Source of the DNA: a virus
Taxonomy: Duplodnaviria > Heunggongvirae > Uroviricota > Caudoviricetes
Reading direction: 5' to 3' (one strand)
Length of the DNA: 21,599 bases
Virus record (IMG/VR): IMGVR_UViG_2695420596_000007
Span: 1 to 21,599 of that record
The position numbers were made by a program, and so were the translations under genes. Every line of letters starts with the position of its first letter. The first letter of the stretch is position 1. This document shows, one piece after another, positions 1 through 21,599 of the stretch. The notes beneath the pieces were generated by a model. The model was not told where the DNA came from. It did no database searches and was given only the letters and a program-made list of their open reading frames with translations.

Positions 1-1257
1 GTGCTTACCGATACAAAATTAAAAAACCTCAAGCCGCAGGACAAACTGTACAAGGTCTCCGATCGTGACGGGCTGTATGTAGCTGTGCTTACGTCAGGCA
101 CGGTCTCGTTTCGCTATGACTACCGTATCAACGGTCGCCGCGAAACACTGGTAATCGGGCAGTATGGGCGTGACGGTATCAGCCTAGCAGAAGCGCGAGA
201 AGAACTGATTGCTGCAAAGAAGCTGCTTAAAGCAGGCCAGTCGCCGGCTGCGGCTAAACGTGACGGTATCAAAAAGATTCGTGGTGCCGAGACGTTTGCG
301 GTACATACCGACAGTTATATGAAACACGTCATCCTGGCTGACAGTACCCGCGCAATGAAGCAGGCGGTGATCGACCGTGACATACTTCCGGTTCTTGGCA
401 ACAAAATGATGGCTGAAATTACCACATCGATGGTTCGTGATTTGTGTGACCGGATTGTCGAACGCGGTGGCCGGGCAACAGCAGTGCAGGCCAGGGAGAT
501 CATCAGCAGCGTATACCGTCACGCCAATGACCGTGGTCATGGTTTGTTTAATCCTGCGGCTGATATTAAGCCTTCATCTATCGCCATATTTAAACCACGA
601 GAGCGAACGCTGACACCAGAAGAAATTGGTCTTTTCTTCCGCACGCTGGATGCCATTGGTGCTATGGGCACTATGAAAATGGCTTTAAAACTGCTGCTTA
701 TCACTATGGTTCGTAAGGGCGAATTCACCAATGCAACGTGGGATGAAATAGATTTTAAAAAATGGACATGGACAATTCCTTCAGACCGCATGAAGGGAAG
801 CCGGGCGCATGTTATTTACCTGCCTAAACAGGCACAGGATATATTGGTCGGGTTGCAGATGTGCGCTGGTGGAAGTGAATATCTGGTTCCTGGTCGTTAC
901 AATTTCCGGAAGCCATTATCTAATGCCGCGCTGAACTCTCTGATCGACAGAACGGTGAAAATAATAAATGAAGATGGTGAGCATATTCAGGACTTCACCG
1001 TACACGATATGCGCCGTACAGCAAGTACGTTGTTGCATGAGGCTGGTTATCCTTCAGACTGGATTGAAAAGGCTCTGGCACATGAGCAGAAAGGTGTGCG
1101 CGCCGTATATAACAAAGCGGAATACGCCAGACAGCGCGCCTACATGTTGCAGCAGTGGGCCGATATGATTGATTCCTGGATTAACGGGGAGCATACGGAT
1201 CTGATTCCGTTCTCCCCGTCGAAGTTTGAGAAGTGGATGGAAGACAGTAATAAATAA
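1..1257 (+). CDS. int: Phage integrase, tyrosine recombinase (P4-like). The ORF starts with GTG at the window edge, so the true start may lie a few codons upstream
   Basis: 418-aa ORF; N-terminus LTDTKLKNLKPQDKLYKVSDRDGLYV is typical of P4-family integrase arm-binding domains; C-terminal HDMRRTASTLLHEAGY and YNKAEY fit the catalytic R-H-R-Y region. Confidence 0.9.
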   Translation: MLTDTKLKNLKPQDKLYKVSDRDGLYVAVLTSGTVSFRYDYRINGRRETLVIGQYGRDGISLAEAREELIAAKKLLKAGQSPAAAKRDGIKKIRGAETFAVHTDSYMKHVILADSTRAMKQAVIDRDILPVLGNKMMAEITTSMVRDLCDRIVERGGRATAVQAREIISSVYRHANDRGHGLFNPAADIKPSSIAIFKPRERTLTPEEIGLFFRTLDAIGAMGTMKMALKLLLITMVRKGEFTNATWDEIDFKKWTWTIPSDRMKGSRAHVIYLPKQAQDILVGLQMCAGGSEYLVPGRYNFRKPLSNAALNSLIDRTVKIINEDGEHIQDFTVHDMRRTASTLLHEAGYPSDWIEKALAHEQKGVRAVYNKAEYARQRAYMLQQWADMIDSWINGEHTDLIPFSPSKFEKWMEDSNK

Positions 1258-1259
1258 TT

Positions 1260-1919
1260 CTATCCTTCCTGGACTTTGGTAAGCGTCAGATTTCCGCAGA
1301 ACACTGCGCCGGTGTCGATGTACATCTGGTTTGCATACACCAGTGGGTGATGTGCTGGCGTATGACCGAAGATGAACAAATCGGCACCGGTTATCTCCGA
1401 GACAATACCGTCCTGCGCGTCGCTAACCCGCTCACGATTCCATATCACCATTTCTTCTGGTACTGGCTTATCGAATGCGTATTCGTTGTGCGGGTAGTCT
1501 GCGTGACAGATGACGAGCTTCTTATTGCCGGTAACTAGTTCGATAATCATCGGGAGGTTGGTAATCTTTGGCAGAAGGTATTTGAGTTGCACATCCTGCT
1601 CAGAATCAAGTTGGTGCCACCATCCACCGCCGTTTGACATCCAATGTCCGAAACTTCCGCCGTTGACCAGTGCATCCAGCATCATCTGCTCATGGTTGCC
1701 ACGAACAGCTCGGAACCACGGCATAGTAATCAAATCCAGGCATTCGACGTTTTCAGCGCCGCGGTCAACAAGGTCACCAACGGAAATAAGTAAATCGCGC
1801 GCCGGGTCGAATGAAACTTTGTCGAGTTCGTTCATCAGCAGCGTGTAGCACCCATGCAGATCGCCGACGACGAAGATATTGCACCAGTCAGCGCCATTGA
1901 TGCGTTGATATAGGTTCAT
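1260..1919 (-). CDS. Ser/Thr protein phosphatase, lambda-PPase-like metallophosphoesterase
   Basis: 219-aa ORF with the three metallophosphatase motifs GDLHG, GDLVDRG and GNHE; near-collinear with phage lambda phosphatase as recalled; start overlaps the stop of the upstream methyltransferase gene (ATGA). Confidence 0.85.
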
Positions 1920-2566
1920 GCTGCACGCTCCCGCCCCTGGTTGTCTATTGGTGACACCGGAGCATTGCTGAATGCATTTGTTAATCCGCCAATATCCAAC
2001 GCGTATCCGGGGTGTAGTTGCACTGCCGGGTCTTCACACTGATTACCCCAAACATCGAAGCCATGAGACGTCTGGCGGGCGAACAGTTCAATGCGAGAAA
2101 CATCGCCTAACAATTGCACAAGTTTTTCACGAACGATATCTGGTTTTCTTGAGTGCTCAAGCCGCGGTGCGGTAAATGACTGAACGATCCCTGCATTAAT
2201 GCGCGGAGGTAGTTTTCCCTTTACTGCAAACAGGCAATCTTCACTATTGGCGCGAGTCATGTGACCCATACCCATAACCAGTTTATCTGGTTGTCGACTA
2301 CCACATTTTATCCACGTGAATCCCTTCATGGTCATCAGACGGAATCCCCAGGCTTCAACAACTTTTAGTGCTTCGAGTGGTTGTGTTGGCACCCACCACA
2401 TGGCCAACAGACAGTTTTCATCGGCCAAATCCCACACAGGAAGGCGGCAGATATCCATCACACTCATAACCGGATATTTAAAACCGGCACCGCGATTACC
2501 ATCTGCGGCTTTGTCCCGGTATACCCAGGGTGGATCTGCATAGATTAGTGTGTATTTCTTAGTCAT
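1916..2566 (-). CDS. MT-A70-family N6-adenine DNA methyltransferase (orphan, no cognate endonuclease seen)
   Basis: 216-aa ORF with the DPPW catalytic motif ([10 protein letters not shown]) near the N-terminus, typical of MT-A70 / phage Dam-like methylases. Confidence 0.8.
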
Positions 2567-2858
2567 AAACCACCCCGCAACATCCTATACCGCTATAGTC
2601 GCCACGGCGAAGGCCGTTACTTTTTGTGATACATTGGTCCCTGCGAACCGCGATCCTTGCACGCTCAACATCACCAGAAGCAACATCCATACACTGAAGC
2701 CAAAGGTGAGCGGCAATGCGGAACTGCCCTTTTTTCTCTCTTTCAATCGCGCGTTTTTCGATCTCTATCGCCGCAGGAGTAACGGCGACAATCTTTGACG
2801 GACTGCGCATTGAAACCTTGTTCATGTGATATTTTTCAAGTCGGCTTAACTTTCTCAC
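2559..2858 (-). CDS. Hypothetical protein (99 aa, GTG start as listed; the internal ATG at MNKVS is an alternative start)
   Basis: ORF in the same leftward operon, overlapping the methyltransferase start by 8 nt; no recognisable motif. Confidence 0.4.
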   Translation of the reverse strand: MRKLSRLEKYHMNKVSMRSPSKIVAVTPAAIEIEKRAIEREKKGQFRIAAHLWLQCMDVASGDVERARIAVRRDQCITKSNGLRRGDYSGIGCCGVVYD

Positions 2859-2967
2859 TTAATCCAACCCTCTCTGAAAATTAATGCCAGCAGATAAAGC
2901 CATGCTGAAACAGAGGCCAGGAATAAGTACCATCCTGACCATTTGCTCCAGTGCCTTAGCAGCACAC

Positions 2968-20311: not shown

Positions 20312-20462
20312 CATGGCATTTTTCATGGTACTGATTTCCGGTGACGGTATATAAAACGGTACGGAAAAAATTGAGTTTTGAAAAAATGTTATCACTCAAT
20401 TGGTTATGGTGCCCGTAAATAATTGAGTGGGAATGATTTGACCCTGCACTATGAATGAACAA

Positions 20463-20490
20463 AACCCTCTGTTACTACAGAGGGTTTTTT
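20463..20490. terminator. Rho-independent terminator after the lysis cassette (partly bidirectional)
   Basis: Stem AACCCTCTG/CAGAGGGTT with loop ttacta, followed by TTTTTT. Confidence 0.7.
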
Positions 20491-20528
20491 ATCTTCAAGA
20501 ATTATAGGATTGAAGTTACTAACATCGA

Positions 20529-21068
20529 TTAATTAAACCAGCTGTCCGATTTGTTCTCTTCTGCTTTGCCCACGCTTTTCATCAGATCGCGACCGCCTTC
20601 AGTCATATTTCTGTTGGCGTCAGCTTCAGATTGCACCACATCGGTTTGCGCAGCTTTGTGCTTCAGTTCCTGATCGATAAATTCGTTTTCTCGCTTAACG
20701 CGGGCTTCTTCTTTCGCCAGCGCCAGTTTTTGTTTCTGAATCTCTAAGCTGCGTAGCTCATCTTCATAACTTTGATCGCGTTTTTTGTCCGCAGAGGCTT
20801 CGGCGTCCAGTTTATCCTGACGAGCTTTCTTATTTGCCGCTGCCGTTGCCGCTCTTTTGTTAGCGGCGGCCTGGGCATTTGCGCGACGTTGCTTCTCTTG
20901 CTGGATTTCCCTGTTGCGCTCCGCGACCCATTCGTCATGCTGCCTTTGCTCTTCATTTTTACCTTGCTGTTCCGCTTCTGCGACAGCAGAGAGTTGATCC
21001 TGCAATGATGAGGCGATAGCCGGATAGCTTAAGGAGGCTAAGATGGCGCAAAGAAAAACTTTCTTCAT
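20529..21068 (-). CDS. Secreted/periplasmic charged coiled-coil protein, function unknown
   Basis: 179-aa ORF with an N-terminal signal peptide (MKKVFLCAILASLSYPAIAS) and a Lys/Glu/Gln-rich helical body. Confidence 0.55.
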   Translation of the reverse strand: MKKVFLCAILASLSYPAIASSLQDQLSAVAEAEQQGKNEEQRQHDEWVAERNREIQQEKQRRANAQAAANKRAATAAANKKARQDKLDAEASADKKRDQSYEDELRSLEIQKQKLALAKEEARVKRENEFIDQELKHKAAQTDVVQSEADANRNMTEGGRDLMKSVGKAEENKSDSWFN

Positions 21069-21083
21069 GACTCCTCCTGATTA

Positions 21084-21599
21084 TTAGCTCTTTTCAGGAC
21101 ATTTGGTATTTGGCTGAATACGCGTTTCGTTATACGTCGTGGTAATAACAACGGCTAAACCTGTCGTAAACTGGCACTCTTTACCCACCTGGGTAGAGGT
21201 ATACACTTTGGTGCCTTCCTTATAGGTTAAAGAAACACCTTCCACTAAGGTTTTATCATTCACCATAGAACCCGCTGCCGCGCCTACAGCTCCGCCGCCA
21301 ACTGCACCTGCCGTCGTTCCGGAATTGCTGCCAGACCCGACGTTGTGGCCGATAACACCGCCAGCGACTGCGCCAATAAGCGCGCCGAAGGCTTGTGCGT
21401 TCAGTTTATTTTGGGAGTTGTCTACGGCAACTTTTGCGGGAAGAATGGAAATAATATTAACGGTTTTAGTTTCTTGTTTGGTATTCAGTTGATCGGTTTG
21501 ATAAACATCGGCAGCATGATCGTCAGCATTTGACTGGCATCCTGCCAGAGTGAATGACGCTAACATTGCCACAGGCAGAAGACATTTTTTAAATTTCAT
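21084..21599 (-). CDS. Lipoprotein with a glycine-zipper (SlyB-like) segment
   Basis: 171-aa ORF; signal peptide with lipobox LAGC; Gly/Ala-rich segment FGALIGAVAGGVIGHNVG..GGGAVGAAAG; ATG at the window edge. Confidence 0.6.
   Translation of the reverse strand: MKFKKCLLPVAMLASFTLAGCQSNADDHAADVYQTDQLNTKQETKTVNIISILPAKVAVDNSQNKLNAQAFGALIGAVAGGVIGHNVGSGSNSGTTAGAVGGGAVGAAAGSMVNDKTLVEGVSLTYKEGTKVYTSTQVGKECQFTTGLAVVITTTYNETRIQPNTKCPEKS

Follow-up and report, generated by a model that had tools for sequence, protein, structure and literature searches.

Evidence that a Uetakevirus prophage at Escherichia coli guaA is a deletion derivative

The published attP/attB core of phages phiV10, epsilon15 and vB_EcoP_ZX5 is ATTGAGTGGGAATGATT, situated 190 bp 5' of the integrase gene int (PMC9782041). 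The gene order of this family, taken here from the annotated phiV10 record and the corresponding locus of the Escherichia coli G5 chromosome, begins with guaA, attL, int, the leftward early genes (methylase, PerC, AlpA, RecET) and the repressor, and continues rightward through cro, the replication genes and DUF1064. The middle part holds ead/nin-like genes, the regulator p55, the small and large terminase subunits (TerS and TerL), portal, protease and major head protein. The right part comprises the tail and internal virion proteins p14-p20, the antirepressor region, tailspike, an O-antigen modification gene, the lysis cassette, attR and the host genes yfgI and yfgH. A second described system concerns prophage induction: in Gifsy phages, induction by antirepressor is LexA-controlled, and Gifsy-1 carries the isrK-orf45-anrP locus (PMC4825925, PMC3121763). 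Here we analyze a 21,599-nucleotide stretch of DNA, positions 1 to 21,599 of the IMG/VR virus record IMGVR_UViG_2695420596_000007 and hereafter called the window. With a probability of roughly 0.93, we conclude that it represents a Uetakevirus prophage of the phiV10/epsilon15 type, inserted at the guaA 3' end of E. coli and rendered defective by a single deletion across a 4-bp microhomology.

A phiV10-like prophage at guaA

A megablast comparison of the window with 50,697 phage records and 5,426 complete E. coli genomes, the collections used throughout, placed it in the phiV10/epsilon15 group (genus Uetakevirus). By blastn, eight colinear blocks of the window match phiV10 (NC_007804) at 94-98% nucleotide identity. 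Prophages at the guaA site are likewise 94-98% identical to the window over all common segments, while SPN1S and Tyrion show about 80% identity. The first gene of the window encodes a P4-type tyrosine integrase (1..1257, plus strand) with 99% amino acid identity to the phiV10 integrase, and the identical gene on a Logan contig of run ERR124658 displays the Pfam domains Arm-DNA-bind_3, Phage_int_M and Phage_integrase. This contig, found by exact-protein look-up of the chimeric open reading frame (ORF) described below, is 100% identical to window positions 1-19632 and runs leftward into guaA.

When the two attachment regions of G5, attL and attR, were compared with the unoccupied site of K-12, the core emerged as a 17-bp direct repeat, again ATTGAGTGGGAATGATT. 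Its attR copy lies at 20422-20438 and equals the guaA 3'-terminal 15 nt, TGA stop included, plus the next 2 nt. The attL copy is outside the window, 191-207 bp left of position 1 and about 190 bp upstream of int, and was located at 792-808 of the Logan contig. Inspection of the flanks for attL/attR repeats, as proposed in the initial annotation of this DNA, recovered both, and the span from attL to attR is about 20.6 kb. The locus displays what is typical of Uetakevirus integration, namely the guaA 3' end, the characteristic core and a P4-type integrase some 190 bp away, and, like other cryptic prophages, consists of phage-derived DNA bounded by att repeats in a chromosome. No tRNA that could serve as integration target lies within the window; the target is guaA.

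All DNA to the right of attR is host chromosome (20439..21599, minus strand), with the guaA terminator at 20461-20488, yfgI at 20529..21068 and yfgH at 21084..21599. Relative to K-12 MG1655 it contains 1 mismatch in 1178 nt (99.9% identity), and 5422 of the 5426 E. coli genomes possess it. The genes at the right edge that had been taken for moron-like are these two host genes. With attR and yfgI/yfgH on the right and guaA and attL on the left, no phage genes lie outside the ends. The idea that morphogenesis genes continue beyond the right edge of the window can thus be discarded: attR and yfgI/yfgH follow the lysis cassette, and in place of structural genes the flank right of attR contains host DNA only.

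The deletion junction and its alternatives

Alignment with phiV10 by blastn is interrupted between the replication genes and the tailspike. The window up to position 9121 corresponds to phiV10 up to 35674 (codon 40 of the eae-like gene p46), and from position 9118 onward to phiV10 from 16341, inside p19. The overlap, 9118-9121, is the 4-bp microhomology CAAC, found in phiV10 at 35671-35674 and 16341-16344. It is present on both parental sides (GGCAAC followed by GCAACTGG, and GAGCCAAC followed by CGGTAGCGG) and, as in phiV10, on both sides in the prophages of enterotoxigenic E. coli (ETEC) O6:H16 M9682-C1 and of CEA601S. The block missing from the window measures about 19.77 kb in phiV10 coordinates and comprises p47-p55 and p01-p18, plus the p46 C-terminus and the p19 N-terminus.

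In a gene inventory, for which the 55 phiV10 proteins were all searched against the window by tblastn, there was no match for TerS, TerL, portal, protease or major head protein, or for the tail proteins p14/p15, the internal virion proteins p16-p18 and p47-p55. All other retained genes with a phiV10 counterpart are full length. The largest intergenic gap is 217 bp, and no structural gene is therefore concealed in the window. Across the junction runs an in-frame chimeric ORF of 209 amino acids (9003..9632, plus strand) composed of about 40 amino acids of p46 and the last 172 or so of p19. tblastn aligned it with p46 amino acids 1-40 and p19 amino acids 423-600, and in PHROG its N-terminus matched phrog_250/492 and the remainder positions 415-594 of the 594 of phrog_1145. 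The next ORF encodes an 824-amino acid virion structural protein (9638..12112, plus strand) that is phiV10 p20 at 97% amino acid identity over its full length (phrog_684, E=0); its reading as a replication or primase gene was ruled out on this basis.

These data confirm the gene content initially described, with recombination, immunity, replication, antirepressor, tailspike and lysis functions but no terminase, portal or coat gene. The accompanying statement that morphogenesis genes are absent holds for head and packaging functions and fails for p20 and the C-terminal part of p19, and the morphogenesis module is truncated rather than entirely absent. Among p01-p20, only p20 and p19 amino acids 423-600 are left, and genes that are essential for particle formation have been lost relative to functional relatives, as in cryptic prophages. 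Being podoviruses, these phages are not expected to have a tail-tube gene. Of the two explanations originally offered, a deletion remnant proved correct, with one junction accounting for the removal of about 19.8 kb present in phiV10 and other relatives. The window had been considered insufficient to settle the matter, yet it holds both the junction and attR.

We propose that one illegitimate-recombination event at CAAC deleted the block and left the in-frame eae'-'p19 fusion, an event with which a 4-bp microhomology is compatible. It would have removed the ead/nin-like genes, the candidate regulator p55, both terminase subunits, portal, protease and major head protein, along with tail proteins, internal virion proteins and p19 up to about codon 420. 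Its gene content shows that the element cannot package DNA or build heads. Several considerations weigh against this interpretation. The predicted loss of plaque formation is drawn from gene content only, and the defect may be complemented from elsewhere in the genome, by a second related prophage or by the missing block in a new location. Furthermore, the same reads may underlie both assemblies in which the junction occurs. Finally, expression of the lysis and tailspike genes is uncertain, the candidate regulator p55 being deleted and the binders of the motifs described below being only candidates.

The rarity of the junction was assessed with a 401-bp probe across 9118-9121, a spanning match being defined as at least 80% of the probe. 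Matches were obtained in 530 of the 5,426 E. coli genomes and in 20 phage records, each over one half of the probe only; no match spanned the junction in the genomes or in the 50,697 phage records. Exact copies of the chimeric protein come from just two contigs in the public collection, one from NCBI E. coli (WP_072179437.1) and the other the Logan contig of ERR124658. The junction is thus private, being confined to a single isolate or lineage. A parent with near-identical sequence on both junction flanks was not found, and for this reason we call the junction private, not recent.

The guaA locus has decayed independently in other strains. The finished genomes of G5, M9682-C1 and CEA601S contain guaA-site prophages with differing internal deletions, all without terminase, whose left breakpoints fall within ~1.5 kb downstream of the replication genes; in M9682-C1, IS100 is additionally inserted in the tailspike gene. 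These three ranked top by the joining rule of the search itself and are a biased sample that demonstrates recurrence of decay, not its frequency. The phiV10 TerL was detected in 525 genomes and p20 in 324, counts that do not translate into a decay frequency because TerL is common to other phage types.

An alternative view is that of an evolved phage satellite or a selectively domesticated module providing immunity, RecET, tailspike and SOS-triggered lysis, possibly with a helper Uetakevirus. Retention of int/xis, repressor, replication genes and origin is satellite-like, the other retained genes shared with phiV10 are all intact, and other guaA-site prophages have lost terminase yet kept early and lysis genes. 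However, the junction is private to one isolate across the genomes, the phage records and the protein collection, with no recurrent architecture, and it cuts two genes internally, leaving a gene fragment between flanks that are both ~96% identical to ordinary phiV10. TerS is gone as well; the pac site is expected to reside in TerS, although it has not been mapped in the Uetakevirus family. Pfam, PHROG and PADLOC scans of the genes not shared with phiV10 revealed no capsid-redirecting, capsid-remodelling or helper-sensing genes, and the relatives with other deletions, having been enriched by the joining rule, provide no evidence of selection. We regard a satellite or domesticated module as very unlikely. 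Nor is there support for the earlier suggestion that the element was retained for its regulated accessory genes, given a junction private to one isolate and a frameshifted O-antigen acyltransferase.

An assembly artefact, in which a misjoin or collapse over a full-length prophage created the junction, is equally improbable in our judgement. The source is a short-read draft assembly, and the NCBI and Logan assemblies may share the ERR124658 reads. Nonetheless, the two sides have only 4 bp in common, and the join must consequently exist in individual reads; the k-mer or overlap length of assemblers is far above 4 bp. Moreover, two different assembly pipelines produced sequence that is 100% identical over 19.6 kb, contigs pass unbroken from host DNA on one side of the element to host DNA on the other, and finished genomes show independent internal deletions at the same locus. 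Least credible of all is an intact prophage with morphogenesis genes outside the window, whether beyond the lysis genes on the right or beyond the integrase on the left: the window is indeed only a partial view of the chromosome, but attR and yfgI/yfgH come directly after the lysis cassette, the integrase of the identical ERR124658 contig comes directly after guaA and attL, phiV10 (once its linear map is permuted at attP) and guaA-site relatives keep their structural genes between replication and tailspike, and the junction and truncated p19 sit at exactly this position.

Retained genes and their predicted control

In the deletion derivative, the segment left of the junction largely follows phiV10. 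Next to int, where phiV10 has a DUF1382 gene, lies a gene for a NinI-like Ser/Thr phosphatase of the Metallophos family (1260..1919, minus strand; PF00149, 2.3e-15; phrog_246, 1.7e-107), and blastn gave no phiV10 DNA match for window 1241-1913. Adjoining it is an orphan MT-A70 N6-adenine DNA methyltransferase gene (1916..2566, minus strand; 96% amino acid identity to phiV10 p33; PADLOC MTase_II, 8.9e-77) with no partner restriction gene. The minus-strand genes continue with a PerC-family activator (2559..2810/2858, identified by phiV10 protein comparison), a small membrane protein (2858..2974), an AlpA-family excisionase/regulator (2968..3216), RecT (3266..4147) and a RecE-like PD-(D/E)XK exonuclease (4144..4965). 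The AlpA-family protein is 100% identical to phiV10 p36, and the annotation of its SPN1S homologue reads excisionase. Identity to phiV10 falls to 74% in the RecT part, which indicates a module swap. The prophage repressor (5570..6154, minus strand) has two helix-turn-helix domains and 100% amino acid identity to phiV10 p40; the Pfam scan returned HTH_3 only and no S24 peptidase domain.

Rightward from the repressor, the early-right operon (6309..8479, plus strand) consists of a cro-like gene (6309..6539) with a product 100% identical to that of phiV10, p42 (6690..6890), a DnaT-like initiator (6906..7697) and a lambda-P-like loader (7694..8479). Four to five iterons (AATATACCCAAAAACGGGA, at 18-24 bp spacing) at 7161-7284, within the initiator gene, probably constitute a replication origin kept in the remnant. 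The intact genes on this side of the deletion end with that for a DUF1064 protein (8597..8941, plus strand; 97% amino acid identity to phiV10 p45).

Between p20 and the antirepressor lie three small genes, assigned to phrog_8691 (12122..12535, plus strand), phrog_36716 (12641..12973, minus strand) and phrog_13406 (12975..13163, minus strand), with back-to-back terminators at 12551-12568 and 12620-12638. As to defence systems, PADLOC reported only the orphan MT-A70 methyltransferase, the gene at 12975..13163 being covered solely via the overlapping ORF 12928..13176. The minus-strand operon that follows is headed by a LexA box, CTGTATAAATATACAG, at 14517-14532, the sole perfect CTGT-N8-ACAG in the window versus 0.27 expected. 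It contains a p24-like gene (14238..14495), an isrK-family RNA (14079-14155; Rfam, 67.7 bits), a C4-family antisense RNA (13970-14054; Rfam, 61.2 bits) and an AntA antirepressor gene (13270..13920; Pfam AntA, 7e-28). A mechanically called ORF at 13948..14271 overlaps the isrK and C4 RNAs and is probably no gene. The arrangement over 13270..14532 resembles the LexA-controlled induction of Gifsy phages and suggests an SOS-wired antirepressor unit.

The tailspike gene (14691..17225, plus strand) encodes 844 amino acids with 81% identity to phiV10 p25 over amino acids 1-222 only. PHROG tail families match amino acids 1-~270 only, in keeping with a conserved head-binding N-terminus, and DNA for the receptor-binding C-terminus was detected in only 3 of 5426 genomes. 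Downstream lies a pseudogene for an Acyltransferase-3 protein of the O-antigen acetylase type (17263..18343, minus strand), in which two ORFs represent the two halves of PF01757. Relative to an intact homologue of 359 amino acids, which reads TTTTTCT at this site, a single 1-nt insertion in an A8/T8 run (17991-17998) causes a +1 frameshift. The frameshift would be a second lesion of the prophage, inactivating the O-antigen acyltransferase, and could reflect decay, phase variation or a sequencing error. In E. coli MSB1_9I, the tailspike C-terminus and acyltransferase (window 15929-18353) recur at 94% identity in an unrelated intS/argW prophage remnant, and the guanine-plus-cytosine content of segment 15360-18343 is 37.6% versus 46.9% for the whole prophage. 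The two genes thus appear to form an exchangeable receptor-binding and O-antigen-modification cassette that may move between phage types as a unit.

The lysis cassette is complete. It encodes, on the plus strand, a holin-like membrane protein (18514..18918), a holin (18905..19213), a GH19 endolysin (19203..19832), Rz (19829..20311) and the embedded Rz1 (20028..20300), all full length with 81-97% amino acid identity to phiV10 p27-p30a.

A 15-bp palindrome, TYACCT-N3-RGGTRA, occurs in three copies in the repressor-cro intergenic region (6210, 6227 and 6258, spanning 6210..6272), where they are candidates for OR operators. Others are found at 5436, 5498, 6419, 6595, 8517, 8579, 13190, 14192, 14572 and 18393. 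The 14 window sites give 28 strand-matches versus 0.38 expected, a number reached by none of 100 shuffles (0/100). Two copies are in the PL-like region, and the replication, DUF1064, isrK, tailspike and lysis units each have one or two in front of them. All of these sites recur in phiV10, which has additional ones before the portal operon and int. Nearly the same palindrome is found at the same positions in SPN1S though its repressor is only 42% identical, and we accordingly assign no binder. Recurring in front of nearly every operon, the palindromes are operator candidates whose layout has some resemblance to that of the dispersed C1 operators of phage P1.

A second motif, CATATRTGGTT (the CATATGTGGTT element), precedes the DUF1064, tailspike and lysis units at 8563-8573, 14616-14626 and 18441-18451. 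It is located 30-35 nt downstream of a palindrome and ~7 nt upstream of a -10-like hexamer, with no recognisable -35, and on these grounds may be an activator-dependent promoter element. In phiV10, where it occurs at 3308, 20921, 24739, 33135 and 35116, it also precedes the portal and replication units. Matches number 5 in the window versus 0.84 expected and 8 in phiV10 versus 1.23 expected. A generic sigma-70 promoter scan of the window showed no excess (21 matches versus 24 expected). The tailspike and lysis units, which survive, are still preceded by the palindrome-plus-CATATGTGGTT control regions found in front of the p06/portal operon of phiV10, an operon lost in the deletion. phiV10 p55, a 'transcriptional regulator' by phrog_536 with no Pfam family, is encoded upstream of terS. 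No Q-family gene is present in the window and none is named in the phiV10 annotation, part of the phiV10 proteins having been scanned for Q families. In view of that annotation and of the motifs carried by the late units themselves, the missing Q looks like a family property and not a symptom of decay. We found no literature on run ERR124658 or on epsilon15 or phiV10 operators in openly accessible sources, which did not include the original genome papers.

From this inventory the behavior of the defective prophage can be predicted. It retains intact the integrase, an AlpA-type excisionase, RecET, a repressor identical to that of phiV10 with operator-like palindromes, the LexA-boxed isrK/C4/AntA operon, origin iterons and replication genes, p20, tailspike and a complete holin-endolysin-spanin cassette. 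A lysogen should display phiV10-type superinfection immunity owing to the identical repressor. Upon SOS induction the antirepressor would inactivate the repressor, making excision and replication possible, followed by lysis without particles or, if the lost p55 is the late activator, by a lysis-silent state. Should the palindrome be the operator of the repressor, derepression alone may turn on lysis; should CATATRTGGTT need the deleted p55, lysis would be silent. A broader proposal has two parts. Uetakevirus late genes would be controlled via sites repeated before each operon and not by a Q-type cascade. At the same time, the remnant would still be active, either as a lysis module that replicates itself and, once triggered by SOS, sets free p20 and O-antigen-specific tailspike but no virions, or as a RecET-equipped tailspike reservoir for incoming Uetakeviruses. 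Taken jointly, we consider these two parts unlikely to hold.

Comparison with described phages

The element is a routine private deletion derivative of a well-known family. Its annotation should read defective phiV10-like prophage at guaA, not mosaic or satellite, with yfgI and yfgH removed from the list of phage morons. The description as mosaic is apt in the usual phage sense, as the tailspike C-terminus and acyltransferase, the NinI-like phosphatase and RecT differ from phiV10, but is not the label the element requires. The locus offers a clean, base-resolved example of prophage decay in which packaging and head genes were lost while immunity, recombination, replication and lysis genes are intact. 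The observations on motifs and promoter elements and on the LexA/isrK/C4/antirepressor region are possibly of modest use for understanding Uetakevirus gene regulation; the regulatory motifs are only mildly new material and concern the phage genus, not the deletion.

Gene order, 17-bp core and lysis cassette are those of phiV10 and its relatives vB_EcoP_ZX5, phiv142-3 and O157 typing phages 9/10. With phiV10 in particular, the window shares identical repressor, cro and AlpA proteins, the same LexA-box/isrK/C4 region and the dispersed palindromes. Unlike phiV10, it lacks the 19.77 kb from the p46 C-terminus through the p19 N-terminus, and has a different tailspike receptor-binding domain, a different and frameshifted acyltransferase, an AntA-type instead of a Bro-N antirepressor, the NinI-like phosphatase in place of DUF1382, and a RecE gene separate from that of RecT, the latter being divergent. 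The prophages of G5, M9682-C1 and CEA601S occupy the same site with the same flanks and have also kept int, RecET, repressor, replication and lysis genes while losing terminase. They differ from the window in their breakpoints and in their smaller deletions (prophage spans of 29-33 kb), and none has the 9118-9121 junction. The antirepressor region invites comparison beyond the genus. Unlike that of Gifsy-1, it is set in a podovirus and has no AntQ-like antiterminator after the antirepressor, and its function is predicted from sequence. Nonetheless, as in the Gifsy-1 isrK-orf45-anrP locus and the P1 c4/ant module, isrK-family and C4-family RNAs lie upstream of an antirepressor gene, and, as in the LexA-controlled induction of Gifsy phages, a LexA box heads the operon and the repressor is without a self-cleavage domain.

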